Shown one piece after another: positions 4,426-25,899 of a stretch of DNA of 64,000 nt (positions are counted from its first letter, which is position 1; each line of letters starts with the position of its first letter). A program made the translations under genes and the position numbers. This DNA comes from Gammaproteobacteria bacterium (GTDB lineage Bacteria > Pseudomonadota > Gammaproteobacteria > Porifericomitales > Porifericomitaceae): contig JABAAT010000038.1 of assembly GCA_014238615.1 (NCBI GenBank), positions 78,363 to 142,362 of the forward strand, given 5' to 3'. Below the pieces are notes generated by a model. It saw only the letters and a list, made by a program, of their open reading frames with translations, was not told the origin of the DNA and made no database searches.

Positions 4426-4426
4426 C

Positions 4427-5413: not shown

Positions 5414-6276
5414 GCAGCCGGGATCCCATGAGGCCGGTGGGTTTGATCACCAGCACCAGCAGCATGATGAACAGGCCCAGCATCGTGGCCAGGGTGCCGC
5501 TGTAATAGGTCGTGACGAAAGTGTGGAAGAAGGCGTACAGCACGGCTGCAAGCACGGCCCCCCGGATGCTGCCGATGCCGCCTACGATGGCCACGATGAA
5601 GGCCGTGATGATCACCGCGTGTCCCATGTAGGGCTCGACGCGCACCAGCGGCGCCATGAGAGCGCCCGCGGTGCCGGCCAGGGCGGCGCCCAGGCCCATG
5701 GCGAACATGCCGATGCGCCGCACACTGATGCCCTGCAGCGCGGCTGCCTCCCGATCCATGGAAACCGCGCGCAGCGCCCAGCCCAGGCGGGTCCAGGTCA
5801 GCAGCCAGCCCACCGCGGCGAGCAGTCCCAGGGACACCACCAGGGCCACCGCACGCTGTACGGGAATGCGCACCTCGAAGGGCAGTTCCAGGGTGCCCGG
5901 AAAGGCCGGCGGCACATGCTTCATCAGGCCCAGGCCGCCGATCTGCACCGCGAGCACCTGCAGGATGAAAAGCAGGCCGATGGAATTGATGAGACCGCCC
6001 AGCGGGTTCTCCCGGAAGGGCTGAAACAGGAAGCGCTCCATGCACAGCCCAAGCAGGCACACGATGAGCGCCGCCGCGAGCAGCGCGAGCGGAAAAGGAA
6101 GCCCCTGTCCGGCGTACAGCAGCCAAACCGTGTAAGCCCCCACCATCACCATCTCGCCATGGGCGAAGTTGATAATGCCCATGACGCCGAAGATCAACAC
6201 CAGGCCCACGGCCCAGAGGCTGAAAAAGCCGCTCTGGACCAGCGCGTTGGCGATGCTTTGCAGTACCAGTTCCAAG
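5406..6276 (-). CDS. HAAT-family ABC transporter permease (LivH/UrtB-like); start uncertain, possibly the TTG at ~6276
   Basis: LELVLQSIANALVQSGFFSLWAVGLVLIFGVMGIINFAHGEMVMVGAY matches the LivH/UrtB N-terminus. No ATG lies near the expected start; the ORF track extends to 6416 into the binding-protein gene. Confidence 0.75.
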
Positions 6277-6340
6277 GTCTTGATGTTCTTATTCGTGGGG
6301 ACGGGCGGGGCCGCGGCGCGACCCCGCCCGCATGGCAGAC

Positions 6341-7615
6341 TCAGCCCTGCTGGTAATGCATCAGCCCCATGGCTTCCATGTGCTTGACCAGGAGATCCTT
6401 GTAACAGGACCACCATTCGGGGATGCTGCGGAACTCCTCGATGCGCGCCCGTCCGTCACGCACGGTGACCACCGGCCAGTTGCCCACCAGGGCGTTGTCA
6501 ATGCCCCAGAGCTCCTCGCCCCACCAGGAGGCGTCGCCGAAGGCATGCGGCGCGCGGCCGCCCTGCTTCATGGCCTCCAACACCGCCAGGGGCTCCACCG
6601 AAGCGGCCTGCTCCGCCGCCGCCTTCCACAGGTCCATGATGGAAGCGTACTCCCAGGCCACCGCCGACCACTGTCCGGGGTGGCGCTCAACGAACTTCTC
6701 GTAGAAGTCCTTCGGCCGCTTGAAGTTGATGAAGTCCTGGCGCAGGGCCGGGTCGTCGAAGTCCGGGAACTGGAAGATGAAGCCCTCCACGAACTCCTTG
6801 CTGGTCTTCTCGATGACGTCCTGGTAATTGTCAAAGGTACAGGAGATGATCTTGCCCTTGAAGCCCTGGTGAAAGAGTTGCTCCGTGATCAGGTTGACGT
6901 AATCCGCGTAGCAGGTGTCCAGGCAGACGATGTCCGGCCCGGAAGCCAGCATGGAGGTCACGACGGGGGCAAAGTCGGTGGTCGACGGATCGAAGATGTT
7001 CTGATCCACCACGTCGATGCCGGCCGCCTCGAAGGCCGCCAGGTAGGTCGCCACCGAGGGCAGCCCCAGGGAGTCATTCTGGGCGCAGATCGCGGCCCGC
7101 TTCAACTCCGGGAAGTTCTGGGCCATCCATTCCACTCCGGTCACGTTGTAGATCGGATGCACCTCGCAGGGAGCAATGTGGTAGGGAGCGTCCGGCGACA
7201 GGTCACTGGGCAACAGCGTGGAAGTCAGCAGCTTGCGCCGGGTGGCGAAAGGCTGCACCGCCGGCCAGGTGTCGCCGCCGAGCATCATGACGAACTTGAC
7301 ATCATGCTCGCCGACCAGCTTCTTCATACCCTGCAGGGCCTTGTCGGGAAGGTATTCGTTGTCGTAAGAAACGAACTCCACCTTGTAGTTGTCGCCGCCG
7401 ATGCGCAAACCGCCGGCGCGGTTCACCTCCTCGGCCCAGATTTCGCAGCCCTACAGACCCGGCAGGCCCCAGGCCGCCACCTCACCGGTAAGAGGCGCCA
7501 AAAAGCCGATCCGCACGGTGCGCGAAGCGGCACGCGCGGCGCCCGGCAGGCCACCGCAAACCATGACGCCGCCGAGCGCGGCGGCGCGCAACAATTCTCT
7601 ACGTGTAATAGCCAT
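6341..7615 (-). pseudogene. Periplasmic substrate-binding protein of the HAAT (amide/urea/branched-chain) ABC transporter with a Tat signal peptide; interrupted by an in-frame TAG at 7451-7453
   Basis: ORF 7451..7648 (MAITRRELLRAAALGG...TVRIGFLAPLTGEVAAWGLPGL*) and ORF 6341..7426 are in the same frame. The hand-read junction is ...GLPGL-TAG-GCEIWAEEVNRAGGLRIGG. AGGAGG RBS 7 nt before the ATG at 7613-7615. A Tyr is expected at the stop position by homology. Confidence 0.6.
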
Positions 7616-7729: not shown

Positions 7730-8329
7730 TCAGGGGGTTTCCTCCTCCATGGGCCGCAGCTCCGCATAACGCCCGCGGAAATACAGCAGGGGCTCGGCGC
7801 GCGGCGCGTAGTGCACCACGCTGTCCACCTGTCCTACGAAAATGACATGGTCTCCTCCCTGGTAGGTGTAGTGCGTGCTGCAATCAAACACGGCCAATGA
7901 GTCCGGGAACCAGGGGCTGCCGTTCGGGGTTTGCCGCCATTCCGTGGTCGCCCATTTATCGCCCATGGGCACCGCGAAGCGCGTCGCCAGGTCGCGCTGT
8001 CGAGTGGACAGGACGCTGACCGCGAAATGCGCGGTGGAGAGGAAGGCTCGCAGGCTGTAGGCGCCCTTGTCCAGGCTGAACAACACCAGGGGCGGCTCAA
8101 GGGACACCGAACTGAAGGAATTCGCGGTGATGCCCAAGCGCTCCCCACGCTGCCCGCCGGCGGTGATGATGGTCACACCGGTGGCGAAATTGCCGAGAAC
8201 CCCACGCAGCTCCCCGCGGCTGAGCGGCGCCCGGGATTCCACAACGGGTTTTGACTCGGAGGATTCCGACACGATCTCCAGGGAGCTTCTTTCCGAGCGG
8301 CCGGCCGGGGAATGATCAGAGGCGGCCAT
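7730..8329 (-). CDS. NAD(P)H-dependent flavin reductase (HpaC/RutF-type, flavin_reduct domain)
   Basis: LRGVLGNFATGVTIITAGG...SFSSVSLEPPLVLFSL is typical of the small flavin reductases that partner two-component monooxygenases. Confidence 0.8.
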   Translation of the reverse strand: MAASDHSPAGRSERSSLEIVSESSESKPVVESRAPLSRGELRGVLGNFATGVTIITAGGQRGERLGITANSFSSVSLEPPLVLFSLDKGAYSLRAFLSTAHFAVSVLSTRQRDLATRFAVPMGDKWATTEWRQTPNGSPWFPDSLAVFDCSTHYTYQGGDHVIFVGQVDSVVHYAPRAEPLLYFRGRYAELRPMEEETP

Positions 8330-8331
8330 CG

Positions 8332-8660
8332 CTCAGGATTGCACCCGCTCTTTGCGCGGGTCGTAGAAGGGGCTCGGCACCACGCGCGCCGGGATGCGCT
8401 TCTGGTGACCGTCCAGCTTGCCCACCTCCACGGCGGCGCCCTCCGCGGCGATGCCGCGGCGCGGGATGCAGGATCTCGCGGGACGATGCGCCTTCACGGA
8501 TCCAGCACCGTGAGTCGGTCACCGGCCTGCAGTCCGAGCCGGATAGAGCCGCCGCCGTGGCCCTGGCAGCGCTCCCGCCCAGGCGGCAGGGCCGCCTGCC
8601 TTGACAGGGACGGCGTGGCCGGAGTGAGTACGGGGGATGCCGCCATTGGCAGGCCTTTAA
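8332..8660 (-). pseudogene. Collapsed remnant of a second tdm-like (DUF1989-GcvT) gene: ~57 N-terminal codons joined out of frame to ~40 C-terminal codons
   Basis: Bases 8332-8470 align to the 3' end of the intact gene at 14943-15075 (VEVGKLDGHQKRIPARVVP.PFYDPRKERV). Bases 8470-8660 align to its 5' end at 17150-17318 (MAxxxxLTPxxPxxSRxAxxPPGRERxQxxGGGSIxxGLQAGDRLTxLDP). Roughly 80-85% nucleotide identity, so this is not a recent copy. Confidence 0.6.
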
Positions 8661-10069
8661 GCCTTCCCGGAACCAGGTAGTGCCTTTTCGGACTCCGCCA
8701 CGAGGCGTTCGCCCAAGGCGCGTTTGGACTCCTTGTCAAGCTTTTTCAACTCGTTGTTCAGTACCCTTTCGTTGAGCGCCTGGTTCCAGTAGTCCAGCGA
8801 TTCGAAACCGAGCAGCACGGACTTGCCGACGAACTGGCGCAGCACTTCGTTGGTCGGTCCCATCACCCAGCCCGCCTTGCCGTCCCGCAGGTAGCGTTCA
8901 ATGCCCAAGGCCGGCTTGTAAGCGGTGCCGCCGCAGGCATGCAGCATCTTGTCCGAGACGTGGGCCACGTTCTTGGCGGCGGTGAACTTCACCTGCCACA
9001 TCCAGTGCAACAGGTCGGAGCGGGGCAGCGCCGAGACATCCCGGTGGATGGACCAATCGCAGTCACCGGTACAGCTGTCCAGGGCCTGGGCCATCATGAA
9101 AACCATGGCGCGCGAGGCGTTCGTGTCGATCAGCGCCTCCACGACGTAGTCCTGGATCGTCGGATAATCCGCCACCCGCATGCCCACATCAGCGTGTTTC
9201 TTGCGGGTGGTGTGCACCTTGGCGATATCAATGAGACCGAGTGAAATGCCGTTCCAACAGGAAGAAGACATGAGCAGGAAGAACGGATCCACCGCCTCGT
9301 CGTTGGAAACGGCGCCGTCACCCACGGGCCCCACGAGCCGGGCGGCCGGTATCTCGACCGCGTCGATCTGGATGGGGCCGGACTGGTTGCCGCGCAGGCC
9401 CAAACCGTCCCAGCTGGCCGGATCCGACTTGACCTCGTCGCCGAGAATCAGGAAGCAGGACAGGTTCGAATAATCGCCGCCGAAATCCGGGCTGGTGGTC
9501 TGTACGATGTACCAGTCCGCGAAACCGCCCGAAGTGGTCCAGGATGCCTTCTTATGAACCCGCCAGCCATGTTCGATACGCTCCGCCCGCGAGCTGACCG
9601 GGTACCAGAAGTGCGAGCCGGTCTCCGGATCGGAATAGGACAGGGTGCCGATCAGCACCTCCTTGTCCAGGCGCCCCATGAGCTCCTGGATCACCTGGTT
9701 GTCGTGATGACGCAGCAGGGCCGCGGCCACGGCGCCCGCGTGCATGGTATAGCACATGGCGGTGCTGGCACAGCCGTAGCGCGCGATGGTCTCCACCACC
9801 ATCGCCACACAGGCATGGTTCTCCCCCATGCCGCCCAACTCCTCCGGCACCAGCAGCCCCAGCACCCCGAGTTCGGCCAGCGCCTCAAAGTTCTTGCGCG
9901 GGTAAAGCAGCTTCTTGTCGCTCTCCACGGCGTTCTCGCGCAGAGTGGTGTGACACAGTTCGATCAGATCGGCCTGCAGGCGTTGCTGCTTGTCCGTCAG
10001 CACCCACTGCGGGTCATATTCATAACCCAACCCCCAAAAAGGTTCCGTACCCCATTTCTTGTTGCTCAT
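8657..10069 (-). CDS. Acyl-CoA-dehydrogenase-fold flavin-dependent oxygenase (group-D two-component monooxygenase-like: DszC/SfnB/IBAH family)
   Basis: ACAD N/M/C-domain signatures (LAELGVLGLLVPEELGGMGENH, ...GTLSYSDPETGSHFW..., ...YLRDGKAGWVMGPTNEVLRQF). Start taken at MSNKKWGT with a GGGGAG RBS. A flavin reductase lies 330 bp downstream in the same orientation. Confidence 0.75.
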   Translation of the reverse strand: MSNKKWGTEPFWGLGYEYDPQWVLTDKQQRLQADLIELCHTTLRENAVESDKKLLYPRKNFEALAELGVLGLLVPEELGGMGENHACVAMVVETIARYGCASTAMCYTMHAGAVAAALLRHHDNQVIQELMGRLDKEVLIGTLSYSDPETGSHFWYPVSSRAERIEHGWRVHKKASWTTSGGFADWYIVQTTSPDFGGDYSNLSCFLILGDEVKSDPASWDGLGLRGNQSGPIQIDAVEIPAARLVGPVGDGAVSNDEAVDPFFLLMSSSCWNGISLGLIDIAKVHTTRKKHADVGMRVADYPTIQDYVVEALIDTNASRAMVFMMAQALDSCTGDCDWSIHRDVSALPRSDLLHWMWQVKFTAAKNVAHVSDKMLHACGGTAYKPALGIERYLRDGKAGWVMGPTNEVLRQFVGKSVLLGFESLDYWNQALNERVLNNELKKLDKESKRALGERLVAESEKALPGSGKA

Positions 10070-10611: not shown

Positions 10612-12600
10612 TCAGGCCAGCCCCAATTCCTGCTTTCTGGGCAGCGCCCACCTGTTGATCAGATGGTCCATTGCAAGCCCCATAAAGGCGACACACAAGC
10701 CTAACACCAAGCCTTTACCCATATCGCTCTCGGAAAGCGCCTGCATGATTTCCTGTCCCAAATCCTGGGTTCCGATAAAGGCGCCGATAATCACCATGAA
10801 CAAAGCAAATATAACCGTTTGATTCACACCAAGCATAATATGTGGAAGCGCCAACGGCAGTTCGATCTTAAACAGCCTTTGTATCCTGCTCACACCCGAC
10901 ATCGTCGCCGCCTCCTGTAAACCCTGTGGAACACTGCGCAAACCCTCTATGGTGTAGCGCGTGGCTGGAATCGAGGCATAAATAATCACCGCGGTAAGCA
11001 CCGACACATCGTTGACCTGGAACAGCATGATCACGGGGATTAAATAGACGAAAGATGGAAAGGTCTGAAGAGTATCGCAAATCAACAGCGCGTACCTGGT
11101 CGTGAAGCTTCTGCGTGAGGCGATGATACCTATCGATAAACCAATGAACACAGAGATGAGCACCGAAAAACTGACCATGTAAGCGGTAATCATCGCTTTA
11201 TTCCACCAGCCGGTCAAGGCGATGAAGGCAAAGAAAGCGCCCACGATGAGCGCGGAGCGCACCCCGCCAAGGAACAGGCCGGCGCCCATCAGCAGGGCAA
11301 ACACCGCAACCATCGGCAGCGATGTATAAGCGTCCCGCATGGGAATTAATACTTCCACCAACAGGAAGGTTCGGAATTGCTGTAACCCGGAATACCAATT
11401 CCTCACAACCCAATCCACCATGAAATCCCAAAAAGGAGCAGTGGTGATCGCGACGGAGCGGGGAATCTTATAAGCATAAGGAAAAAACTTTGAGACGATG
11501 ATGCTGAGCAGCGTCAATCCGACAATGGCAAGCCAATATTTATAGCGTACATAAAAAGGCAGATCGGCGCGATAATCAGGCTGTTTGTGCGCCCAGGCCA
11601 GGGACAGCCTGTCAAGCACAATGGCGATCAGGACAATGGAAATACCAAGCTCCAGGGCCTTCCCAATCTTCAGGCTTCCCAACATCACCAGCAATGTATA
11701 ACCCAATCCGGAAGCGCCGATAAACGAAGCGATCACCACCATGGCCAGGCATTGCATGATCACCTGGTTCACACCAATCATGATGTCGTGCCGGGCCGAG
11801 GGTATCTGCACCTGGGTCAACAGCTGCAGGTTATTGCACCCACTCATCCTGCCGGATTCGAGCACCTCCACGGACACTTTCTTCAATCCCAGCAAAGTCA
11901 AGCGAATCATCGGTGGAGTCGCAAAAATAATCGTCGCAATCGCACCGGCGTTATCACCGATACCAAAGAAAACCAATACCGGAATCAGGTAGGAAAAATG
12001 GGGAAGCGATTGGGCGACATTCAACAAGGGAGCCAGCGTCAGCTCCACGACCTTGTACCTGTAAGCCAACACCCCCAGGGATAAGCCCAGAACCAGGGCA
12101 ATAGGCACCGCAACGAACACCAGGGATAAAGTACGCATGGAATCCTGCCATTGCCCGAAGACGGCCAGGTAGATCACGCTAAGGCCCGCAAGCAACGATA
12201 ATCTCCAGCCCTGCAGGGCGTAACCTATCACAAAGGCAATTCCCGCCACGGCGGTCCACGGCAGCGCCGGCAGGGCGAATCCCTTCCGCCCTCCCAGAAG
12301 AATGTTACGCACTACGTCAATACTCGACTGCAGCGCATCCGACACACCCCTGCTTATCAACATCACCGCCGTTGTCTCTTCCGCAAGATCTTCTTCCACG
12401 TCGATGACTGTAATCTTCCAGAATTCATCCTGCAGGAAGAACAAAGCCTGGTTCAGCCACTCGGCTATCGGCAATGTGACGGAGGCGGGCCACGTGAGCA
12501 GCCAACCCGGCATCACACCCTTCCCTGCCACCAATACGGCGAATACGATAAAGAGAAGGGCAACCTGTATTGACTTACGGTCTGTGGGCAGGTGTACCAT
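10612..12600 (-). CDS. Glycine-betaine/TMAO-type ABC transporter permease with two fused ProW-like domains (TmoW-like)
   Basis: 662-aa polytopic protein with two BPD_transp_1 cores (EAA-like loops). Confidence 0.8.
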   Translation of the reverse strand: MVHLPTDRKSIQVALLFIVFAVLVAGKGVMPGWLLTWPASVTLPIAEWLNQALFFLQDEFWKITVIDVEEDLAEETTAVMLISRGVSDALQSSIDVVRNILLGGRKGFALPALPWTAVAGIAFVIGYALQGWRLSLLAGLSVIYLAVFGQWQDSMRTLSLVFVAVPIALVLGLSLGVLAYRYKVVELTLAPLLNVAQSLPHFSYLIPVLVFFGIGDNAGAIATIIFATPPMIRLTLLGLKKVSVEVLESGRMSGCNNLQLLTQVQIPSARHDIMIGVNQVIMQCLAMVVIASFIGASGLGYTLLVMLGSLKIGKALELGISIVLIAIVLDRLSLAWAHKQPDYRADLPFYVRYKYWLAIVGLTLLSIIVSKFFPYAYKIPRSVAITTAPFWDFMVDWVVRNWYSGLQQFRTFLLVEVLIPMRDAYTSLPMVAVFALLMGAGLFLGGVRSALIVGAFFAFIALTGWWNKAMITAYMVSFSVLISVFIGLSIGIIASRRSFTTRYALLICDTLQTFPSFVYLIPVIMLFQVNDVSVLTAVIIYASIPATRYTIEGLRSVPQGLQEAATMSGVSRIQRLFKIELPLALPHIMLGVNQTVIFALFMVIIGAFIGTQDLGQEIMQALSESDMGKGLVLGLCVAFMGLAMDHLINRWALPRKQELGLA

Positions 12601-12634
12601 GGGGTTGCCTGTCGGGGACTAAGCGCCGGACCCC

Positions 12635-13672
12635 TTAGCTGGGCTTCCCGAATAAAATATGCAGTATCCTCTTGCAGTTTAAAACACCGATAATTTCCCC
12701 CTGCCCATCAACCACGGCGACCGGTTTGGTTGCAGACAACACCCGCTCGGCAACCTGCTCAATGATGACATCGGCTGCAACGGTGAATTCACTCAACTCC
12801 TGCCCTTCCTGCTTCGGCTCCATCACGGACGCCGTGGTCAGGACCCGCTCGCGCGGGACTTCGTTGGTAAATTTTTTCACATAGTCGGTCACCGGATTGA
12901 GTACAATATCAACCGGGGCGCCGATTTGCTCAACTCTGCCGTGGTACATAATGGCGATTCTATCCGCCAATCGCAGGGCCTCATCAAAATCATGGGTAAT
13001 AAACACGATGGTCTTGTTCAGCAGGGACTGCAGGCGCAGAAATTCGTCCTGCATTTCACGGCGAATCAGCGGATCCAAGGCTGAGAAAGGCTCATCCAAA
13101 AACCAGATATCGGGTTCCACCGCCAGCGATCGGGCGATGCCTACACGCTGCTGCTGCCCTCCCGACAACTCTCGCGGGAAACTCTTTTCGCGACCCACTA
13201 AGCCCACCAATTCGATCATTTCCCGCGCACGCCCGTGGCTGTCAGCGGTCTTTACACCTTTGACCTGCAGGGGAAAAGCAATATTTTCCAGAACGGTTTT
13301 ATGCGGGAGTAAGGCGAAATTCTGGAACACCATCCCCATCTTATGACGGCGAAGCTCTATCAGATCCTTGTTGCGCATCTTCAACAAGTCTTGACCGTCG
13401 ATGAGGATTTCCCCCGCGGTCGCGTCAGTCAGGCGGGAAATACAACGTACCAAGGTCGATTTACCCGAGCCGGACAGACCCATCACCACCAGCATTTCTC
13501 CCTGGTGTACCTCCAGGGAAACATTATTCACGCCAATAATGCAGCCTGCCTTACTGAACTCTTCCTCATCTACCCGGCCCTTGCTTTCTTCCAGCAGTTT
13601 CCGGGCGTTCTCCCCAAAAATTTTGTACACGGAACGGCATTCTATAACCGCCTGTGCCTTCTCTTCCGCCAT
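12635..13672 (-). CDS. Glycine-betaine/TMAO-type ABC transporter ATP-binding protein (ProV/TmoV-like)
   Basis: GLSGSGKST, LSGGQQQRVGIARSL and IWFLDEPFSALD motifs, followed by a C-terminal CBS-like tail. Confidence 0.85.
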   Translation of the reverse strand: MAEEKAQAVIECRSVYKIFGENARKLLEESKGRVDEEEFSKAGCIIGVNNVSLEVHQGEMLVVMGLSGSGKSTLVRCISRLTDATAGEILIDGQDLLKMRNKDLIELRRHKMGMVFQNFALLPHKTVLENIAFPLQVKGVKTADSHGRAREMIELVGLVGREKSFPRELSGGQQQRVGIARSLAVEPDIWFLDEPFSALDPLIRREMQDEFLRLQSLLNKTIVFITHDFDEALRLADRIAIMYHGRVEQIGAPVDIVLNPVTDYVKKFTNEVPRERVLTTASVMEPKQEGQELSEFTVAADVIIEQVAERVLSATKPVAVVDGQGEIIGVLNCKRILHILFGKPS

Positions 13673-13770
13673 GCGCGCTTAACCTCTAGAGAGGATCCAA
13701 TTACCAAAGGCACTTGCCGCGGCAAACGCGCGCGGCAAGTACCCCTGGTAACGGATAGTTTTTCGTCTGA

Positions 13771-14715
13771 TTAATCTTTAAGCCATGGTTTCCAGGCAGC
13801 TTCATTGTCTGCAAGCCACTTATCCGCAGCCTCTTCGTGCTCTAAACCGTCGATATCCACCAACTTCGCCATGGTCGCGATTTGCACCTTGTCGAAATCA
13901 ATGCGCGTCAGCAGTTTGTAGGCTGCCGGCCACTTTTTCGGCATTTGATAATAGGCCGCCTTCTTCAACCAACCCGCCGGCGGGCTGCCGCAAACACCAT
14001 CACCGCCATCTTCCTTCCTGCAACCTTCATAATACTCCGGGAACTCGATAAAGTCACCCCCGTAAAGCGCATCGGTGAAATTAGGCGACCAGTTGAACAG
14101 TACGATGGGCTTGTTGTTTTTCTTGGCGGCTTCCAATTCCGCCCATAAGGCAGCCGCGGAACCGGCGAACACAGCCTTATAATCCATCTTTAAGGCTTCA
14201 ATGCGGTCCTTGGTCTCCTGCCCGTGCCAATCAGCCGGACCATCCAGGTAACGGCCCAAAGGCGCGGTTTCCGGGCTGCTGAATGTCTCCGCACAGGCGT
14301 TGAGCGCCTCCCAGCTGGGCAATCCCGGACAAAACTCGGTCACGTAAGCAGGATACCACCATTCTTCCCGGGTTTTTGCCGTATGGGTGCCCGCATCAAT
14401 GATGCCGCCCTTGTCCAATGCCTCGTTAAAGGATTTTCCAAAGGTACTTTGCCAAACTTCCATAGAGACGGTGACATCGCCACGGCGAATCGATTCATAC
14501 ACCGCCTGGCTGTCCGCCGGTTTGTACTCAACATTATCACCGAGTTTCTCAAACAACTTACCGACAACGTAAGACATGACGATCTGACTGGACCAGTTGT
14601 GCGTCGGGAGGATAATCGGATCCTTGGAATCCGCAGCCACCGCCCATCCTGACAGACCAGCCAGCAGCATACTGACAAGCGCCACCGGCAATAGTTTTCT
14701 AAGCATGAATTTCAT
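13771..14715 (-). CDS. OpuAC-family periplasmic substrate-binding protein (glycine betaine/choline/TMAO-binding, TmoX-like)
   Basis: Signal peptide MKFMLRKLLPVALVSMLLAGLSGWAVA, then an OpuAC-like fold sequence. First gene of the transporter operon adjacent to the tdm-like gene. Confidence 0.8.
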   Translation of the reverse strand: MKFMLRKLLPVALVSMLLAGLSGWAVAADSKDPIILPTHNWSSQIVMSYVVGKLFEKLGDNVEYKPADSQAVYESIRRGDVTVSMEVWQSTFGKSFNEALDKGGIIDAGTHTAKTREEWWYPAYVTEFCPGLPSWEALNACAETFSSPETAPLGRYLDGPADWHGQETKDRIEALKMDYKAVFAGSAAALWAELEAAKKNNKPIVLFNWSPNFTDALYGGDFIEFPEYYEGCRKEDGGDGVCGSPPAGWLKKAAYYQMPKKWPAAYKLLTRIDFDKVQIATMAKLVDIDGLEHEEAADKWLADNEAAWKPWLKD

Positions 14716-14942
14716 AATTCAGATACTCCCTAAAAATGACCTGCAAAGCCCTTCCTAGATAAGGTCCTTGCTACAGTGATAGCTTGCGCCATGAACCCGG
14801 TACACCGCCCGCTACAGGCGACGCATCGGGATTTTCTTATCGCGCGGGACACTCCGTATAGCCGTATAGCACCGCGCCCTTGAAAATACGAAAAATTCCG
14901 GCCGGGATGTCGAACAGGAATGGGGCGGAGGCAGTCACCGCG

Positions 14943-17318
14943 TCAAGCCCGCACCCGTTCCTTGCGTGGGTCGTAGAAGGGGATCGGCACCACGCGCGCC
15001 GGAATGCGCTTCTGGTGACCATCCAGCTTACCCACCTCCACGGCAGCACCCTCCTCGGCGGCACTGACATCCATGCGGCATAAGGCGATATTGCGGCGCA
15101 GGACAGGCGAGCGCACGGCGCTGGTCACCACCCCTGTCTGGGCACGACCCTGGTGCACGCAGTCACCGTGCCCGGCCGCTTCGTTGCCCTCCAGTTCCAG
15201 TCCTACCAAGCGTCGCTGCGGGTGCGCCTTGCGCTTTTCCAGGGCCGCCCGGCCCACGAAATCGTCCTGCTTGCCGCGCAGCGGCACGCAAAAGCCGATG
15301 CCGGCCTCAAAAGGATCGGTTTGATCGCAGAATTCGTAGCCGGCGAAGACCAGGCCGGCCTCAATCCGCAGCATATCCAGGGCCTCCAGGCCCAGGGGCG
15401 CCAACCCCAGGGGCTGTCCGGCCTTCCAAAGCGCGTCCCAGACTTCAACAGCGGCGTCCGGATGACACCAAAGTTCATAACCCAGCTCACCCGTATAGCC
15501 GGTACGCGAAATCATCAGGGGAACACCCTTGAGATCCCCCAGGCGACCGATCGTAAAACGGAACCACTGCAGTTCCTCCAGGGTCGGTTGCGCCGGGGGC
15601 GTCCAGATCAGTTCGCGCAGCAATTCACGCGAGCGCGGCCCCTGCACGGCGATATTGTGGAGCTGATCCGTGGAGGATTTGACCCAAACCCGGTATTTCT
15701 TTTCCTTGGCCTGCTTGCGCAACCAGTCGCCGCCGTATTCCTCACCGCAGATCCAGCGAAAGTTATCGGCTCCAAGTCGGAATAAAGTACCGTCATCCAA
15801 CATGCCGCCGCTCGGGTAACACATGGCCGAGTAAACTACCTGCCCCACCGCCAGGCGCCGCACGTCGCGGGTGATCGACCACTGCATCAGCGCCTCCGCA
15901 TCCGGACCGAACACCTCAAATTTGCGCAACGGGGAAAGATCCATGACCGCAACGCGCTCCCGGCAGGCATGATACTCCTCGATGGTGCCGTATTCCTGGT
16001 AGGAAGTCGGGAGCCAATACCCCCGGTACTCAGTAAAACGCCGCGTCAGCGCGGAACTGCGGGGGTGAAAAGCCGTTTCGCGGGTCATTCGGGTCTCCGA
16101 GTCGGGGTGCAGACGGAAAGCAACGGCCTTGCTGAACATATGCCGTGAAGGATAGACTCGCACCTGCACATCGGTGGGATTCCAGCCATTCGCCGGATCA
16201 ATGTCGTCCGGGCAGGCCGAGGAAGAGCAGACCAAATCGGTCAGGGCGCGCAGCAACACGTAGTCGCCCGGACGGGACCAGGATTCATCCAGGTAAATAC
16301 TATTTGAATCATCAATACCGGTGTTGTAGAAAAAATTCACGGCCGGCCAGGCAGGGCGTGCCCGCACACCGTAATCCCGCAAGGCCGCGTTGAAGTTATC
16401 CGAACAGTTCGGGTGTCCGAAATAGCCACGTTCCTCGTAAAACCTGGCATAGCAGGCCAGGCCAAAGGTGTCGTGCCGGCCGCAGGTGTCACGCACCACC
16501 TCCAGCAAGGGGTTTAGATCCTGATCGTAGAACTTGGAGTACAGGCCGGGCTGCGGACAGGTAAAGCCCATCAGGGAGCGCGTGGCAGTGGCATCCAGGC
16601 TGTTCTCCCGGCCCGCCTCCAAGGGCGCGTGTGCGAAGGCCAGGAAGTCTGAACATTGGTGACCGGCGATATCCATCACCTGGATGTATTCTCCGGCACG
16701 CACCAGGTAGGCGTGCGCGGTACGCGCCTGGATACGCAGATCCAGGCGCGCTTCAGCCAAGGGCTCAGGCAGAGACTCAAGCGGGTTCGGAACCTCAATC
16801 GGATGCTCCCGATCCACGAAAGCGATCAATTCCGTGGCGGGCCGATGGCCGGCCACGGCGCCCTCTATCGGCATCGCACCGCCCACCGACACCAGGATGC
16901 AGTTGCAGGCCACCGCCGCGCGCAATTCCCGGCGCAATCCGGGCTCGGAGTCAGGCGCGAAGAGGCGCACGCCGCGCAGGTGTCCCCGATCGGCCACGGT
17001 CGCCTGGAGACGCTTGCGCAAACGCGCGGCGTTCGGATCCGCCGCCAACTGCAAGAGCGCCTCGCGTGCGGGTGGCAGATCGGAGGCATTCAACAGATTC
17101 GCGTCACTTTTCCCCGTCTCATCAAACACCAGGATCTCACAAGGCTGTGCGCCTTCCGGGTCCAGCAACGTAAGCCGGTCACCCGCCTGCAGACCGATCC
17201 AAATCGAGCCGCCGCCGGGGACCTGGTAGCGCTCCCGCCCGGGCGGCGGGGTCGCCAGCCTCGACAAGAACGGGGTGGCCGGGGGAACCGTCGGAGTCAG
17301 TGACAGGGCTACCGCCAT
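14943..17318 (-). CDS. tdm: DUF1989-GcvT fusion protein, trimethylamine N-oxide demethylase (Tdm)-like
   Basis: 791 aa. The N-terminal ~400 aa resemble the DUF1989/urea-carboxylase-associated family. The C-terminal ~380 aa form an aminomethyltransferase (GcvT) fold (RERVAVMDLSPLRKFEVFGPDA...GYTGELGYELW...). This is the architecture of characterised Tdm, next to a betaine-type transporter. Confidence 0.65.
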   Translation of the reverse strand: MAVALSLTPTVPPATPFLSRLATPPPGRERYQVPGGGSIWIGLQAGDRLTLLDPEGAQPCEILVFDETGKSDANLLNASDLPPAREALLQLAADPNAARLRKRLQATVADRGHLRGVRLFAPDSEPGLRRELRAAVACNCILVSVGGAMPIEGAVAGHRPATELIAFVDREHPIEVPNPLESLPEPLAEARLDLRIQARTAHAYLVRAGEYIQVMDIAGHQCSDFLAFAHAPLEAGRENSLDATATRSLMGFTCPQPGLYSKFYDQDLNPLLEVVRDTCGRHDTFGLACYARFYEERGYFGHPNCSDNFNAALRDYGVRARPAWPAVNFFYNTGIDDSNSIYLDESWSRPGDYVLLRALTDLVCSSSACPDDIDPANGWNPTDVQVRVYPSRHMFSKAVAFRLHPDSETRMTRETAFHPRSSALTRRFTEYRGYWLPTSYQEYGTIEEYHACRERVAVMDLSPLRKFEVFGPDAEALMQWSITRDVRRLAVGQVVYSAMCYPSGGMLDDGTLFRLGADNFRWICGEEYGGDWLRKQAKEKKYRVWVKSSTDQLHNIAVQGPRSRELLRELIWTPPAQPTLEELQWFRFTIGRLGDLKGVPLMISRTGYTGELGYELWCHPDAAVEVWDALWKAGQPLGLAPLGLEALDMLRIEAGLVFAGYEFCDQTDPFEAGIGFCVPLRGKQDDFVGRAALEKRKAHPQRRLVGLELEGNEAAGHGDCVHQGRAQTGVVTSAVRSPVLRRNIALCRMDVSAAEEGAAVEVGKLDGHQKRIPARVVPIPFYDPRKERVRA

Positions 17319-17667: not shown

Positions 17668-18444
17668 CTATTTCCGGGCTCCTTTTTCCCCGAACGCCTG
17701 TGGGGCCTCCTCCCACGCACCCAGAAAAGCGTCACAGCCGACCGGAACGCCGTCAAACTCGAGCGCGGCGTCCCCGATACACTCCCACAGGTATTCGGCC
17801 GCGGCGCTGTCCATCAGCAGGTGGTAGGCGGGCAGTGCCGGCGCGCCGGCACACACGCAATCCTCCCGCAGCAGCAGGACATTCATGCGCGCCATGACCG
17901 TCTGCGCCACCCGCAGATTGGGGAAACGATGCGTCCGCAGATCCAGCGCGCAGAGCTTGGCAAACATGGCCGGCGCCTGGGTGCCGCCGATCCGCAGCCA
18001 GGCCGAAAGCGACTGGCGCGGCACCGGGAAGACCCCGGACGGCCGCTCTTTTTCCCAGTCCGCCGCACAACGCTGACATGCCTCGGCCGCGGCCCGCGCC
18101 GCTCCCAGCAACAGTGCCTCGTCACCCATACGCGCCGCCAGCAGGCCGTCCCGGGAACACCTGGTTTCGCCGCTCTCGCCCACACCCAGACCCCGTGCGC
18201 GTAACCAGGAAAGCGCCTCCCAGCCCTTGTAACCAAGCCGCGGCAAGGGGCTGAAGTCGGCCCAGGCCAGGCACCGCAAACGCTCCTCCTCCTCCGGCGA
18301 CGCACCGCAGTCCGCGACAACCACCGTGTCCGCAAAAGCTCGGCAACGGGCGCCGGCTGCTTCAAGGCGCCGATACAGCGGGCTGCGCGCAACGCCATCG
18401 GTCGCCCGGGGAGCAGCGTTCTTACTCTCTTTCACCATCTTCAA
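17668..18444 (-). CDS. Sarcosine oxidase gamma-subunit family protein (SoxG/MgdD-like)
   Basis: Last gene of the B-D-A-G operon; 4-bp overlap with the alpha subunit. Size and position fit SoxG. Confidence 0.65.
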   Translation of the reverse strand: MKMVKESKNAAPRATDGVARSPLYRRLEAAGARCRAFADTVVVADCGASPEEEERLRCLAWADFSPLPRLGYKGWEALSWLRARGLGVGESGETRCSRDGLLAARMGDEALLLGAARAAAEACQRCAADWEKERPSGVFPVPRQSLSAWLRIGGTQAPAMFAKLCALDLRTHRFPNLRVAQTVMARMNVLLLREDCVCAGAPALPAYHLLMDSAAAEYLWECIGDAALEFDGVPVGCDAFLGAWEEAPQAFGEKGARK

Positions 18445-21425
18445 ACTTCCTGGCGCTGGTTTCCCGCATCGTAGAAGGGGGCAGCCACCACGCGCGCCTG
18501 CAAGATGAGCTTTTCATCCTTGCTTTTGCCGTGCGGCGCCTGTCCCTTGATATGCAGCACTTCGCCGACCTTGGAGTCGCTCGGTGCGTAAGCCAGGCCG
18601 ATGGTTTTGCGCAGGGCCGGCGACCAGGCCACCGAGGTAACATGACCAACGATGGCGCCGTTGCGCAGCAACAGGCTGGATTCCCGAAGCAGCGTTCCCA
18701 AATCCGGATCATCCCCCGCCTCAAAAGCGACCAGGCGGCGATCGGACAACTGGTGCCGAGCGCGCAACTCCAGGGAGCGTCCACCAACAAAGAACGGTTT
18801 TTTGCCGGCTACCGCCCAGTCCATCTGCAGCTCTTGAGGGGTACTCATGGCATCGGTGTCCTGGCCGATGATCACGTGTCCTTTTTCCAGGCGCAGCACG
18901 CGCTGCGCCTCGATGCCCACCGGCCGCACGCCGAACTCTACGCCGCCGCGCAGCAAGGCGTCCCAGAGCGCCTCACCGTGGGTTGAAGGCACATGGATTT
19001 CGTAGCCCAGTTCGCCCACGAAGCCGATCCGCAGGAGCCGCGCCGGGAGACCCGCGACACGCCCGCAACGCACTCCCAGGTAAGGAAAGTCCGAAGCTTC
19101 AAGCCGCAGGTCTGCCGCACATACGCTCCGCAACACCTCGCGCGCCCGGGGGCCGGACAGGCTGACCCCGGCGTAGGCGGCAGTGACGTTGCAGATATCC
19201 ACGCGCAAACGCCACTGCGCGTTCCACCACAGCATGTTGCGGTAAACATTCTCCACCCCACCGGTGGTCGCGGTCACGTAGAAATGATCCTCGGCGAGGC
19301 GGCAGGCCACCCCATCATCCGTCACGACCCCCGCCTCGTTGGTCATGAGCACGTAGCGTACCCGGCCCACCGGTTGCTTCTTGTAAGCAAACGTGTAGAT
19401 CCGGTTCAGGAATTCGGCCGCGTCCGGCCCACGCACTTCCAGGCCGCCCAAGGTGGAGACATCGATCATGCCGACCCCATTGCGCACCGCCAGCACTTCC
19501 TCCTGAATGCACTGCTCCCGCGCGGCCTCTCCCGGTGAATAATAAGCTGGTCGCCACCACAGGCCGGCCGCCAACATGCGCGCCCCGGCCTCCAGGTGCC
19601 GGTGATGCATGGCAGTGCGCCGCTCCGGTTCAAAGCAACGCCCGGCGAGCACCCCCAGTTTTTCGGCAGCCACGGGCGGCCGCGCCGTGGTCACACCCAC
19701 CCGCGCCGGCTCGCTCCCGGTGGCGCGCGCCACCAGGCGCGCCGTCGCCAGCGCCGAGTGGCGCCCCTGGGAAGGCCCCATGCCCACCGTGGAATAGCGC
19801 TTGACCAACTCCAGCTCCGCGTAGCCGTCGGCGCAGGCGTTCAGGATATCGGCGATCTGCAGATCCTCGTCGCGATCCACGAATTCCTTGCCGCGCGCAT
19901 GCTGGAAGATGGGCCAGACCGGGGACGCGGCGCCGCTCTCCTCCGGGGACGGGAAATCCTGCGCCGCTTCGCCGTCCCCCCCATTCCCGGCAAGCGCGGC
20001 GACGGCGGCGGCGCCGACCGCCCGACCGTCCGCCAGCACCTCTTCCAGGCTCCTGAAACCGCGCACGGCGCCGGCCAGGCGTACCCGTTCCGGCAAACCG
20101 CTGATCCGAAATCCCTCCAGGTCCCCGGCATGGCTCAGGCGCGCGCCGGCCTGCAAGGGCAGCTGGTAGGTCGGCATGCGGCCCACACTCATGCACAACA
20201 GGTCGCATTCCAGGCGCACTTTAGAGTCCTCGCAGGAACCCCCGGAGATGATGTGAGCGAGCCGCACGGCCGCCAGATGACCGCCGCGCCCGGCCTCGGC
20301 TTCCAACACGCAGCTGCCGGAAAACACTCCCAGGCCACGCCGCACCACCTCCTGGAAACAGTCGCCCTCCGGGGCCGGACGCATATCGACGACCGCGCTC
20401 ACTTCCACCCCGGCTTCCAGCAGATCCAAGGCCACCTCGTAGCCATCCGCGGCGGCCGTGAGCACCACGGCGCGCCGCCCGGGCCGTACCCCGTAGAGAC
20501 GCAGCAGGCGCTGCGCGGCCGAGCCCAGGATCACACCGGGCAGGTCATTGTTGCGGAACACGGCGGGCTGCTCCATGACGCCGGTGGCCAGGATCAGTTC
20601 GCGTGCGCGCAGCTTGTAGAGCCGTCGGCCTTGCACCAGGGGCAGCCAGTTATCGGCGAACCAAGCGTTGCAGAGCGTACCGGAAAGGAACTCAATATTC
20701 GGTGTCTCCGCCACCTCGCGCAACAATTCATCGCGCCGCCCGGACTCGCCGTCCGGCACGTCGCGGGCATAATTCAGCATCCCACCGGGCCGCTCCTCCT
20801 GCTCCACCAACAGCACCTCGCACCCGCCGCGAGCCGCTTCCAGGGCCGCCGCCATACCGGCCGCACCGGCCCCGATCACGGCCACATCACAGAAACGGTA
20901 CATTTTGTCGTAATAAGCCGGAGGCGCATCGCGCCGCACCCGCCCAAGACCGGTCATGGCGCGCACGATGGGTTCCCAGAAATACTGCCACGCAAGGCGC
21001 GGCCGATACATGGCCTTATAGTAGAAACCGACCGGCAGGAAGCGTGAGAAAATACCGAGCAACGCCGATGGATCCCAGCGCAGGCCGAAGGGACCGCAGT
21101 TCTGAGCGCGTATCTCCATGCCATCGCGTAAAGCTTCCATATCAGCCTGAACATTTGCTTCGCCGTTCACCCGCACCAAGGTGTCAGCCTCCAGGCCGGC
21201 CATGGAAAGCGGGCCGCGCGGCCGGTGGTACTTGAAGGAACGCGACAACATCCAGACGCCGTTGGCGAGCAGGGCGCTGGCGATGCTATCCCCCTCGAGG
21301 CCGCTGTACGCGCGACCTTCATAGCGAAACCGCAGCGGCCGATCGCGCCGCACACACAGTCCCGCGGGAGCCGGCAGACGCCAAGGGGCGTCCGCGGCCA
21401 GCGGCGTTGCGGCCGCCTTGCTCAT
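18441..21425 (-). CDS. Sarcosine oxidase alpha-subunit family protein (SoxA/MgdC-like) with FAD/NAD-binding and GcvT-like domains
   Basis: 994 aa. VAVIGAGAAGMAAALEAARGG Rossmann motif, and a C-terminal aminomethyltransferase fold (GELGYEIHVP). Confidence 0.85.
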   Translation of the reverse strand: MSKAAATPLAADAPWRLPAPAGLCVRRDRPLRFRYEGRAYSGLEGDSIASALLANGVWMLSRSFKYHRPRGPLSMAGLEADTLVRVNGEANVQADMEALRDGMEIRAQNCGPFGLRWDPSALLGIFSRFLPVGFYYKAMYRPRLAWQYFWEPIVRAMTGLGRVRRDAPPAYYDKMYRFCDVAVIGAGAAGMAAALEAARGGCEVLLVEQEERPGGMLNYARDVPDGESGRRDELLREVAETPNIEFLSGTLCNAWFADNWLPLVQGRRLYKLRARELILATGVMEQPAVFRNNDLPGVILGSAAQRLLRLYGVRPGRRAVVLTAAADGYEVALDLLEAGVEVSAVVDMRPAPEGDCFQEVVRRGLGVFSGSCVLEAEAGRGGHLAAVRLAHIISGGSCEDSKVRLECDLLCMSVGRMPTYQLPLQAGARLSHAGDLEGFRISGLPERVRLAGAVRGFRSLEEVLADGRAVGAAAVAALAGNGGDGEAAQDFPSPEESGAASPVWPIFQHARGKEFVDRDEDLQIADILNACADGYAELELVKRYSTVGMGPSQGRHSALATARLVARATGSEPARVGVTTARPPVAAEKLGVLAGRCFEPERRTAMHHRHLEAGARMLAAGLWWRPAYYSPGEAAREQCIQEEVLAVRNGVGMIDVSTLGGLEVRGPDAAEFLNRIYTFAYKKQPVGRVRYVLMTNEAGVVTDDGVACRLAEDHFYVTATTGGVENVYRNMLWWNAQWRLRVDICNVTAAYAGVSLSGPRAREVLRSVCAADLRLEASDFPYLGVRCGRVAGLPARLLRIGFVGELGYEIHVPSTHGEALWDALLRGGVEFGVRPVGIEAQRVLRLEKGHVIIGQDTDAMSTPQELQMDWAVAGKKPFFVGGRSLELRARHQLSDRRLVAFEAGDDPDLGTLLRESSLLLRNGAIVGHVTSVAWSPALRKTIGLAYAPSDSKVGEVLHIKGQAPHGKSKDEKLILQARVVAAPFYDAGNQRQEV

Positions 21426-21724
21426 CTCGCCTCCCCCGCCGCGCCGGACTGCGCCGCACCGGACTTCTCAAAATACTCAGCCACCGTGTATGTCTTCAGG
21501 ATGCGGTCGCTGACCGTATCCCGCTCGGCGATGAACCAATAGCTGCTGGGCAAGTGGCACCACCATTCGCGCACCACGCCTGCCTTGTTCTCGGAAAACC
21601 ACACGTGCTCGGCCCATTCCCTGTCCTCACAGGCTTTTGCATCAGGCATCTCAAGTAGTTCTCCCAGGTACAGGAATTCGCTGATGTTGCGCGGTCCGTT
21701 CAGGGGACAGGTCATGACTTTCAT
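21422..21724 (-). CDS. Sarcosine oxidase delta-subunit family protein (SoxD/MgdB-like)
   Basis: 100 aa with MKVMTCPLNGPRNISEFLYLGE (SoxD N-terminal Cys motif). Lies between the beta and alpha genes. Confidence 0.75.
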   Translation of the reverse strand: MKVMTCPLNGPRNISEFLYLGELLEMPDAKACEDREWAEHVWFSENKAGVVREWWCHLPSSYWFIAERDTVSDRILKTYTVAEYFEKSGAAQSGAAGEAR

Positions 21725-21767
21725 GGTCGGCTCCGGACGATACCCAAAACAAACTCAGCAGGCAGGA

Positions 21768-23009
21768 TCAGTGGCTGGCGGCGGTGGCGCCAGCCTCGTT
21801 GCTTAAGTTGAAAGAATAAAAACGGTCCAGGGCGAAAGGCCGGATCAACTCCGGCACACGGCCAGTTGCAATCGCCTGCGCGATGCTCTGGCCGGCCACG
21901 GGAATGGCCTTGAAGCCCCAGGTGCCCCAACCGGCGTCCAACCAATAACCCTCCAGGGGCGTGTGGCCCATGATGGGGCTGTAGTCCGGGGTCATGTCGG
22001 TGATCCCGGCCCACTGGCGCACCAGGCGCAGCTCGTGCAGGAAGGGAAACAGGCCCAGCACCCCGGCGATGAGCGATTCCTTCAACTCCAGGGTGGAACG
22101 CGTGGAATACAGGCTGTAGGGATCGGAACCCCCGCCGATGACTAACTCGCCACGCGCCGTCTGCGACACGTAGGCATGCAGGGAGGCCGAACTCACCAGC
22201 GGGTTCAGGAACGGCTTGACCGGCTGGGTCACCATGGCCTGCAGGGGGAAACTGCGGATCGGCAGACGTAGCCCGGCCATCGCCGCGACCACCGAACTCA
22301 TTCCGGAGACCGCCTGCAACACATGCCCACAGGACAATTCGCCGCGCGACGTGCTCACTCCGGTGACCCGATTCCCGGAGCGCAGGATACCGGTCACCTC
22401 GGTACGCTGGTGCACTTCCACGCCCAGCTCGACGGCGCGCCGAGCGTAACCCCAGGGCACCGCATCATGCCGTGCCAGGCCGCCATCCGCATGCCACAGG
22501 CCACCGAGCACGGGCCAACGCACCCGGCGCGACAGGTTTAGACACGGCACCAAGTCGCGAATCTCTTCCAGGTCCACCATCCTGGAACGCACCCCCAGAT
22601 GCCTGTTGACCTCGGCGCGCAAGCGAAAAGTGCGCAGGCTGGCCTCGGTATGCGCCAAGGTGAGCTGGCCGCGCCGGGAATACAGCAGGTTGTAGCCTAA
22701 TTCGCCGGCCAGCCCCTGGTACATCTCCACGCCTTTCTTGTAAAAGCGTACCGCCTCGGGGGAGATATAGTTCGAACGGATCACCGTGGTATTGCGGCCG
22801 GTGTTGCCGCCGCCCACGTAGCCGCGCTCCAACACCGCAACCTTGCGGATACCGTGCTCGCGTGCCAGGTAATAGGCGGCCGCCAGGCCGTGCCCACCGC
22901 CGCCGATGATCACCACATCGTAGCTGGGACGCAGCGCCTGGGGCGGCGGAATGTCCACCCGCGCCGGGTAGCGCCTGGAAAAACCGTACTTAAGCAGCGC
23001 CCAGGGCAT
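21768..23009 (-). CDS. Sarcosine oxidase beta-subunit family FAD oxidoreductase (SoxB/MgdA-like)
   Basis: YDVVIIGGGGHGLAAAYYLAREHG dinucleotide-binding motif, DAO fold, 413 aa. First gene of the operon, with a GGAGAC RBS. Confidence 0.85.
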   Translation of the reverse strand: MPWALLKYGFSRRYPARVDIPPPQALRPSYDVVIIGGGGHGLAAAYYLAREHGIRKVAVLERGYVGGGNTGRNTTVIRSNYISPEAVRFYKKGVEMYQGLAGELGYNLLYSRRGQLTLAHTEASLRTFRLRAEVNRHLGVRSRMVDLEEIRDLVPCLNLSRRVRWPVLGGLWHADGGLARHDAVPWGYARRAVELGVEVHQRTEVTGILRSGNRVTGVSTSRGELSCGHVLQAVSGMSSVVAAMAGLRLPIRSFPLQAMVTQPVKPFLNPLVSSASLHAYVSQTARGELVIGGGSDPYSLYSTRSTLELKESLIAGVLGLFPFLHELRLVRQWAGITDMTPDYSPIMGHTPLEGYWLDAGWGTWGFKAIPVAGQSIAQAIATGRVPELIRPFALDRFYSFNLSNEAGATAASH

Positions 23010-23710: not shown

Positions 23711-23866
23711 CGCGCGATTATCCGGGTGGGGTCCACCCAAGAGGAGGACAAGGCCAAGGCTAACTAAGGCCAGGAAGGACAAGAAGTATGAATGGGCGGG
23801 GCAACGCCCGGCCGGGCCGCAGCAGGCCCGGGGCCGGGTGTCATCCCCCCTCCCCACGGACAGCTC

Positions 23867-25860: not shown

Positions 25861-25899
25861 CCTCGGCACATCTCCCCACCCCCTCTTTAATGGAAGCGC

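Follow-up and report, generated by a model that had tools for sequence, protein, structure and literature searches.

The 64,000-nt stretch of DNA considered here, which we call the window (positions 78,363 to 142,362 of contig JABAAT010000038.1, gammaproteobacterial assembly GCA_014238615.1), carries a compact module pairing a predicted importer of trimethylamine N-oxide (TMAO) with a predicted TMAO demethylase. Positions 10612-17318 are filled exactly by four intact open reading frames (ORFs) on the minus strand, so that both limits are ORF ends: the tmoW stop codon ends at 10612 and the tdm ATG begins at 17318. An earlier, sequence-only reading of this DNA had described a transporter in the order X-W-V that is immediately followed by a fusion enzyme. 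That description is reversed, since all four genes lie on the minus strand and tdm is therefore the first of them; the order on the coding strand is tdm, tmoX, tmoV, tmoW, with the transporter arranged X-V-W and separated from tdm by 227 bp. The other gaps measure 98 bp between tmoX and tmoV, 34 bp between tmoV and tmoW, 542 bp from tmoW to the next gene and, on the upstream side, 349 bp of AT-rich DNA between mgdD and tdm. The module had also been described as chained to the mgd-like operon on one strand; the shared strand is correct, but a single operon is not supported, given the 349-bp gap and an uninformative scan for signals. This consensus scan for promoters and terminators returned 14 terminator-like sites against 17 expected, none of them in the relevant gaps; one promoter-like site (10201-10173) lies upstream of the gene for a protein resembling acyl-CoA dehydrogenases (ACADs). 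A search of the gaps by eye found no sigma-54 motif.

The predicted TMAO transporter and demethylase

The tmoX gene (13771-14715, minus strand) encodes a predicted periplasmic TMAO-binding protein of 314 aa with an OpuAC domain (PF04069) and a Sec signal peptide ending AVA before AD; the N-terminus, MKFMLRKLLPVALVSMLLAGLSGWAVA followed by AD, is of the typical Sec form as read by eye. Its closest solved relative is the TmoX of Ruegeria pomeroyi (PDB 4XZ6; E 8.8e-112, 56% identity), and among other OpuAC-fold structures the next best PDB match stands at 1.2e-7, with the remainder weaker still. In Ruegeria TmoX the TMAO pocket has been defined by structure and mutagenesis as W55, W102, F106, E131, W177, F220 and W222 (PMC8918994). 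All seven residues are kept in the window protein, as W41, W88, F92, E117, W163, F207 and W209. Pelagibacter TmoX, a proven orthologue, is only about 51% identical to that of Ruegeria (PMC8918994), so that the window protein, at 56%, would fall inside the functional range.

The remaining two transporter genes are of the expected kinds. The 345-aa product of tmoV (12635-13672, minus strand) is a ProV-family ABC ATPase (PF00005) that scores 333.5 bits on the proV subfamily model TIGR01186, for which the cut-off is 326.6, and is 61-71% identical to the ATPases adjoining tmoX in related tdm loci. The tmoW product (10612-12600, minus strand) is a fused double transmembrane permease of 662 aa, with two BPD_transp_1 stretches and two ChoW/ProW-like halves; its homologues in related loci are about 638 aa long.

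These family matches are generic ones, to OpuAC, ProV, ProW and ChoW models, and database homologues carry the label 'glycine betaine/L-proline ABC transporter', which would suit an osmoprotectant importer of the ProU, OpuA or ChoXWV type, for glycine betaine, proline betaine or choline, that merely happens to lie beside tdm. We think this very improbable. The equivalog models of NCBIfam for ProX and ChoX give the binding protein 36 and 43 bits, far under their cut-offs of 215 and 379; TmoX is its sole close relative in the PDB, other matches being over 100 orders of magnitude weaker in E-value; the TMAO-specific Glu and the aromatic box are intact; Pfam detected none of the osmosensing CBS domains in the ATPase; and the adjacency of tdm and tmoX recurs in unrelated genomes. 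The comparisons thus support a grouping of the binding protein with TmoX and not with ProX, OpuAC or ChoX.

Two samples of loci were used for comparison, one of 80 species-representative loci seeded with tdm and the other of 80 metagenome contigs, many of them short, seeded with the ACAD-like gene. In the first, tmoX occurs in the flank of tdm in 13 loci, usually 370-406 bp downstream, and lies 370-729 bp downstream in nine. The X-V-W cassette is also found downstream of tdm in many marine proteobacterial metagenome-assembled genomes (MAGs), and a Leisingera plasmid carries an X-V-W cassette, with a fused permease of 654 aa, beside torS/torT. With the characterized TmoXWV systems of R. pomeroyi DSS-3 (where TmoX is SPO1548) and Pelagibacter HTCC1062, the window cassette has in common the OpuAC fold, an identical seven-residue pocket, a ProV-type ATPase and a link to methylated-amine genes. 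It differs in lying directly behind tdm, as X-V-W, whereas those systems lie beside tmm, as well as in its uncultured gammaproteobacterial host and in a base composition foreign to its surroundings.

The tdm gene (14943-17318, minus strand) encodes a protein of 791 aa composed of an N-terminal domain, a DUF1989 zinc-binding catalytic core (PF09347, residues 195-363) and a GcvT-type tetrahydrofolate (THF) domain (GCV_T, PF01571, 418-676; GCV_T_C, PF08669, 702-783). It scores 1205.1 bits, residues 24-791 aligning with model positions 9-763, on the NCBIfam equivalog model for 'trimethylamine N-oxide demethylase' (NF053776, cut-off 1100 bits), and it matches the Paracoccus TDM structures 9Q59, 9Q5L and 9Q5A from end to end (E 1.6e-273, 53% identity). 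In Paracoccus TDM the zinc site is formed by three cysteines, C285, C301 and C365, with D220, F327 and D367 in contact with substrate or product and R480, F582, F672 and K782 in contact with THF (PMC13619132). Nine of these ten positions are identical in the window protein, including the zinc cysteines (C289, C305 and C369), the two aspartates (D224 and D371) and the whole THF site (R484, F586, F676 and K786); F327 is replaced by another aromatic residue, Y331.

The C-terminal half of the fusion also matches models for GcvT, DmdA, dimethylglycine oxidase and SoxA, as one would expect were it to demethylate some other N-methyl compound, such as dimethylglycine, sarcosine or DMSP, and not TMAO. 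Matches of this kind span only about residues 410-790, however, and those to the GcvT, DmdA and SoxA models fall far below their cut-offs; dimethylglycine oxidase or dehydrogenase and sarcosine oxidase reach just 1e-26 to 1e-37, on the GcvT half only. Tdm alone gives a full-length match, above the equivalog cut-off, and the zinc cysteines and substrate-site aspartates of TDM are retained, which leaves another substrate scarcely credible. Apart from the Tyr at one pocket position, the sequence comparisons all place the fusion in the Tdm family.

The sequence-only reading had recognized an OpuAC-type binding protein, a fused double-ProW permease and a ProV ATPase, descriptions that Pfam and NCBIfam confirmed, and had seen in the fusion the architecture of a TMAO demethylase, which the NF053776 score and the full-length TDM match bear out. 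The two comparisons that it proposed, of the binding protein with TmoX against ProX/OpuAC and of the fusion with Tdm against the dimethylglycine and sarcosine demethylases, came down on the TmoX and Tdm sides.

In its three-part architecture and its length the window protein is like the other members of the Tdm family, among them Msil_3603 of Methylocella silvestris (NF053776) and Paracoccus TDM, and with the latter it has in common the three-Cys zinc site, the pair of aspartates and the THF residues. It departs from Paracoccus in the Tyr that replaces the pocket Phe, and the window adds an internally deleted second copy of the gene, 6.6 kb downstream. Its nearest relatives among GTDB species representatives are 57-63% identical, and no closer ones were found in that set. 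As in the tmm-tdm(-dmmDABC) clusters known from Pseudomonas and from many Alphaproteobacteria, tdm lies here inside a methylated-amine catabolic locus; unlike them, the window has no FMO-type tmm and no haem-dependent Dmm. In several phyla an ACAD-fold gene stands directly upstream of tdm, in a place held elsewhere by tmm.

Composition of the cassette and a decayed copy of tdm

The three transporter genes stand apart in their GC content at third codon positions (GC3), which is 0.62 for tmoX, 0.64 for tmoV and 0.66 for tmoW as against 0.798 +/- 0.038 for 22 other genes of the window, a difference of 3.5-4.6 standard deviations. The two porin genes of the TorF family that lie upstream of mgd (23922-24641 and 26378-27178) are likewise low, and together with tmoXVW they span a GC3 range of 0.59-0.66. 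A GC3 of tmoX and tmoW much below that of tdm is seen also in four MAG loci (L012, L013, L018 and L021), which suggests that the tmoXVW cassette moves between lineages.

An internally deleted relic of tdm (8319-8655, minus strand) separates the end of the ACAD-like gene from the start of the flavin reductase gene; it was recognized by translation, alignment, tblastn and self-blastn. Its 5' piece (8655-8469) corresponds to tdm codons 2-54, with one frameshift (82% nucleotide identity over 153 nt), and its 3' piece (8450-8341) to codons 736-791 (91% identity over 110 nt); the pieces are joined with about 18 nt between them, and the homology extends 15 nt beyond the stop. About 2.07 kb of tdm is gone, and the intact gene lies 6.6 kb upstream. 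Translation of the relic reads the Tdm C-terminus, tblastn gives E-values of 2e-16 and 5e-19, and the repeats (D1 and D2) are direct. Two genes of 50 and 54 aa on the source contig were considered as real small proteins and rejected, both being pieces of this relic.

Intact loci of other phyla (L085, L040 and others) show the order ACAD-like gene, tdm, flavin reductase. The simplest reading is that this lineage, too, would once have had that arrangement; that tdm was then duplicated behind mgdD, the foreign tmoXVW cassette landing after this second copy by horizontal transfer; and that the original tdm, between the ACAD-fold and flavin reductase genes, was subsequently lost through its internal deletion.

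Decayed parts of mgdC (74-82% nucleotide identity) and mgdA (68%) lie between the TorF porin genes, at 25141-26144, and point to further duplication in the region. Together with a decayed copy of the 5' region of mgdA (85%) at 23626-23719, they indicate an old segmental duplication. A 313-aa ORF on the plus strand there (24812-25753) matches no family and is probably an antisense artefact.

The window comes from a metagenome scaffold of 214 kb (ERZ23490334 scaffold_1) and carries the chromosomal genes dprA, def, fmt, trkA, trkH and clpA. A plasmid origin was rejected in view of these genes and of a megablast of the module against PLSDB, which gave one 60-nt match, to a Leisingera plasmid. Since ClpA is at most 62-66% identical to that of named Gammaproteobacteria (Thiotrichales, Thiohalophilus, Thioalkalispiraceae and Methylohalomonas), the host would be an uncultured, deep-branching gammaproteobacterium.

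We consider it very probable that the module is a TMAO importer joined to a TMAO demethylase, an explanation that takes in the role in growth, the cassette acquisition and the loss of the first tdm. TmoX, once exported by the Sec route, would capture TMAO in the periplasm in a pocket made up of an aromatic box of four tryptophans, two Phe and a Glu that hydrogen-bonds the N-oxide oxygen, and would pass it to the fused double permease TmoW, powered by the ProV-type TmoV. In the cytoplasm Tdm would bind TMAO at the three-Cys zinc site of its DUF1989 core and split it into dimethylamine (DMA) and formaldehyde, the latter travelling through an internal tunnel to THF in the GcvT-type C-terminal domain to yield methylene-THF. 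The four genes would serve growth on TMAO, as a source of nitrogen, carbon or energy, and not osmoprotection.

Several points weigh against this explanation. The one pocket substitution, of Tyr for Phe, falls at a position where the Ala mutant of Paracoccus TDM (F327) is inactive, and the specificity of the window enzyme is extrapolated, its nearest relatives being so distant. With gaps of 227-542 bp and an uninformative scan for promoters and terminators, the limits of the transcription units are uncertain. A different codon usage in genes for membrane and periplasmic proteins could account in part for the low GC3 of tmoXVW, the TorF porins being low as well, and the module is known from its genes alone, on a metagenome contig. 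The transporter and demethylase singled out by the sequence-only reading nevertheless make up a familiar and well-understood system, found here in a new host. They add an uncultured gammaproteobacterial example to a well-characterized marine nitrogen and C1 pathway, in which tmoXVW appears to behave as a movable cassette docking behind tdm. The interest of the locus lies more in the acquisition of that cassette, the duplication and decay of tdm, the lack of both Tmm and Dmm, and a conserved but uncharacterized pair of flavin enzymes.

Methylamine neighbours and the missing steps

The mgdABCD-like genes, namely mgdA (21768-23009), mgdB (21422-21724), mgdC (18441-21425) and mgdD (17668-18438), precede tdm on its own strand (17668-23009, minus strand) and match the SoxB, SoxD and SoxA families below the sarcosine-oxidase cut-offs and, in Pfam, SoxD and GCV_T. 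About 15 kb off, on the plus strand, follow in order a DAO-family oxidoreductase, a glutamine synthetase (GS)-family ligase, mgsA, mgsB, mgsC, a 132-aa ORF and an Amt-family transporter, of which the last six are contained in 34068-41208. The ligase, of 491 aa (34068-35543), and the mgsA (35623-36573), mgsB (about 36561-37409), mgsC (37453-38841) and Amt (39745-41208) genes were assigned with NCBIfam and Pfam. The mgdABCD-like, gmaS-like and mgsABC-like genes among these would take monomethylamine (MMA) to glutamate by way of N-methylglutamate.

The ligase reaches E 5e-50 against solved GmaS (9QUR and 7CQL), no closer than to archaeal and Bacillus-type glutamine synthetases, so its assignment as gmaS rests on context. 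The related clusters L085 and L040 hold an additional GS-like gene of 444 aa, and either GS-like gene is a candidate for gamma-glutamylmethylamide synthetase. Across Proteobacteria, Latescibacterota and Gemmatimonadota the mgsC-like FMN subunit keeps 83-89% identity, as compared with 31-76% for its mgsA-like and gmaS-like partners. The 132-aa ORF (38879-39277, plus strand), directly after mgsC, matches no Pfam family and is 66-75% identical to ORFs that follow mgsC in loci of Gamma-, Alpha- and Deltaproteobacteria and of Latescibacterota, some of which have it between mgsC and the ACAD-like gene.

The DAO-family FAD oxidoreductase, of 446 aa (32622-33962, plus strand), lies directly upstream of the gmaS-like gene. 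It has only a weak SoxB-family match and reaches no better than 1e-6 to 1e-9 against sarcosine and dimethylglycine oxidases in the PDB. Its family is very large, with 63-68% identity among marine Gammaproteobacteria, and recurs in methylamine clusters (L003, L005, L010, L074, L085, L101-103, L142 and L154); its members are labelled 'FAD-binding oxidoreductase' or, by JGI, 'methylglutamate dehydrogenase subunit A'. The protein may be an oxidase of N-methylglutamate or of dimethylamine.

Tmm and DmmDABC, the known enzymes on either side of Tdm in the pathway, are both missing from the window. Searches with tblastn, using Pseudomonas Tmm (Pfam FMO-like) and, for dmmDABC, the DmmD, HODM alpha and DmmA-like reductase sequences of a Pseudomonas locus (L076), gave no match in the 64 kb, and the window thus contains no known gene for the oxidation of trimethylamine (TMA) to TMAO or for the step from DMA to MMA. 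The sequence-only reading had placed the steps from TMAO to DMA and from MMA to glutamate in one island. The mgdABCD-like and the gmaS-like and mgsABC-like genes (34068-38841) are present as it described, and both steps are represented, but the pathway in the window is incomplete; the gmaS-like ligase stands in the gmaS position, and its sequence is only distantly related to that of GmaS.

An ACAD-fold protein and flavin reductase beside tdm

On either side of the relic are two genes that we tentatively propose to encode a tdm-linked flavin monooxygenase of the two-component kind. The candidate oxygenase (8657-10069, minus strand) is an ACAD-fold protein of 470 aa with three ACAD Pfam domains, and the candidate reductase (7730-8329, minus strand) a flavin reductase encoded by a 199-aa ORF (PF01613, Flavin_Reduct, E 4e-41; NCBIfam HpaC/HsaB/StyB-type). 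Members of the ACAD-like family from Gammaproteobacteria, Rhodospirillales, Hyphomicrobiales, Latescibacterota, Gemmatimonadota and Verrucomicrobiota share 73-81% identity and carry only the database labels 'acyl-CoA dehydrogenase family' or 'AidB-like'. The similarity of the window protein to solved structures is weak, with E-values of 1e-25 for true ACADs and 1e-10 for the N-oxygenases DnmZ and KijD3. Where the C-terminal YEGT motif of ACADs has its catalytic Glu, a Gly stands here (YEGTN of 8I4P aligns with MGPTN), and within the motif RD[GA]KAGWVMGP[TS]N this Gly is invariant in the best 120 family members among the matches listed. An alternative catalytic base of the isovaleryl-CoA dehydrogenase (IVD) type was judged absent, by eye only. 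An acyl-CoA enzyme of the CaiA/Bbu type that releases TMA was also considered and was rejected, because there is no catalytic Glu and no neighbouring CoA ligase or transferase, and because a dedicated flavin reductase is present.

Absence of the catalytic Glu, weak similarity to ACADs and a Flavin_Reduct partner are features of the group D two-component flavin monooxygenases. Members of that group such as the nitrososynthases DnmZ and KijD3, and DszC, with HpaC-type reductases, have in common with the window pair the three ACAD domains, the missing Glu and the dedicated reductase; with E-values of 1e-10 to 1e-25 against solved group D members, the window protein would be a distant relative. 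Group D flavin enzymes N-oxygenate amines, but we know of none that acts on methylamines. A literature search of incomplete coverage found no ACAD-fold or two-component enzyme in the catabolism of TMA, DMA or TMAO, and an earlier description is possible.

The distribution of the ACAD-like gene bears on its function. Of the 80 tdm-seeded loci, 50 have tmm in the flank of tdm and 12 have the ACAD-like gene there, with both present only in L075, so that 11 of the 12 ACAD-bearing loci are without tmm (Fisher p 5e-5 for the exclusion, uncorrected for phylogeny). Of the 80 ACAD-seeded contigs, 32 contain tdm, 39 have an adjoining flavin reductase gene and not one contains tmm. The pair was recorded in loci L028, L040, L085 and L087-L166. 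In Latescibacterota the ACAD-like gene lies directly upstream of tdm, as tmm does in Pseudomonas; in other species loci tmm is close to tdm on either side. One locus from an 8-Mb genome (L085) has mgdABCD, gmaS, mgsABC, the small ORF, the ACAD-like gene, tdm, the reductase, a DAO gene, Amt and FTHFS in one co-directional run, and another (L152) has the ACAD-like gene, reductase and tdm along with a full set of genes for the haem-type Dmm (HODM). In Hypericibacter the 10 kb around the pair contain no tdm.

These observations can be read as non-orthologous displacement of Tmm, the pair being a two-component TMA N-oxygenase that feeds TMAO to Tdm. We regard this as a real possibility, if still somewhat short of probable. 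It would account for the near-exclusion of tmm and the ACAD-like gene beside tdm, for the absence of tmm from the ACAD-seeded contigs, for the placing of the ACAD-like gene in Latescibacterota at one of the two positions that tmm takes beside tdm, and for the occurrence of the pair in L152, where Dmm is complete. It also agrees with the absence of the true-ACAD catalytic Glu, with the N-oxygenases DnmZ and KijD3 as detectable relatives and with the established amine chemistry of group D. Against it stand the locus with both tmm and the pair, the tdm-free surroundings of the pair in Hypericibacter, and the origin of many ACAD loci in a few related phyla, which may make the exclusion a phylogenetic one. 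A TMAO importer in the same locus, moreover, makes an internal source of TMAO unnecessary. The pair is known from genes alone, and an AlphaFold2 model of the ACAD-like protein (from a 25-sequence, 75%-identical alignment) had a mean pLDDT of 55, too poor for inspection of a pocket.

Alternatively, the pair, or the 446-aa DAO oxidoreductase, might supply the step from DMA to MMA in place of DmmDABC, which we consider unlikely, though less so than the alternatives dismissed for the transporter and for Tdm. DAO-family enzymes such as sarcosine and dimethylglycine oxidases carry out oxidative N-demethylation. Both L085 and L040 encode Tdm and the whole route from MMA to glutamate with no Dmm, and the sole unassigned oxidoreductases in these clusters are the pair and, in L085, a DAO protein as well. 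The want of dmm genes in the window also fits, as does the acknowledged problem, still open, that dmmDABC is missing from SAR11 and many abundant marine Gamma- and Deltaproteobacteria (PMC5520151). L152, however, holds the pair together with full Dmm, the JGI label of the DAO family suggests that this protein may act on N-methylglutamate instead, and dmm genes could sit outside the window, on the 214-kb contig or in another part of the genome. Hydroxylation of a methylamine carbon is, to our knowledge, no known reaction of ACAD-fold flavin monooxygenases.

Our leading suggestion for the pair, made with reserve, is that of a very highly conserved, previously undescribed two-component flavin monooxygenase of methylated-amine catabolism, converting TMA to TMAO most likely, where FMO-type Tmm is absent, and DMA to MMA less likely. 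As a candidate replacement that tracks tdm across phyla and almost never occurs with tmm beside tdm, it makes an open question of marine methylamine cycling directly testable. Should it prove to be an alternative TMA or DMA oxygenase, this would be relevant to the 'bottleneck' described in the literature on marine methylamine degradation and would change the scoring of TMA and TMAO cycling in metagenomes; current gene surveys would miss part of the global turnover, because the pair spans Gamma- and Alphaproteobacteria, Latescibacterota, Gemmatimonadota and Verrucomicrobiota.

Clustering of ORFs in the ACAD-seeded loci, swamped by antisense shadow ORFs in high-GC DNA, gave only rough hints of further associations, namely fatty-acid desaturase, aromatic lyase-like, SHMT and cold-shock genes in soil-type loci. 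In the window itself the flavin reductase gene is followed by a Liv/Urt-type ABC transporter (2933-7426, minus strand) with a Peripla_BP_6 binding protein, two permeases and two ATPases, the substrate of which could be an amine or amide tied to the locus.

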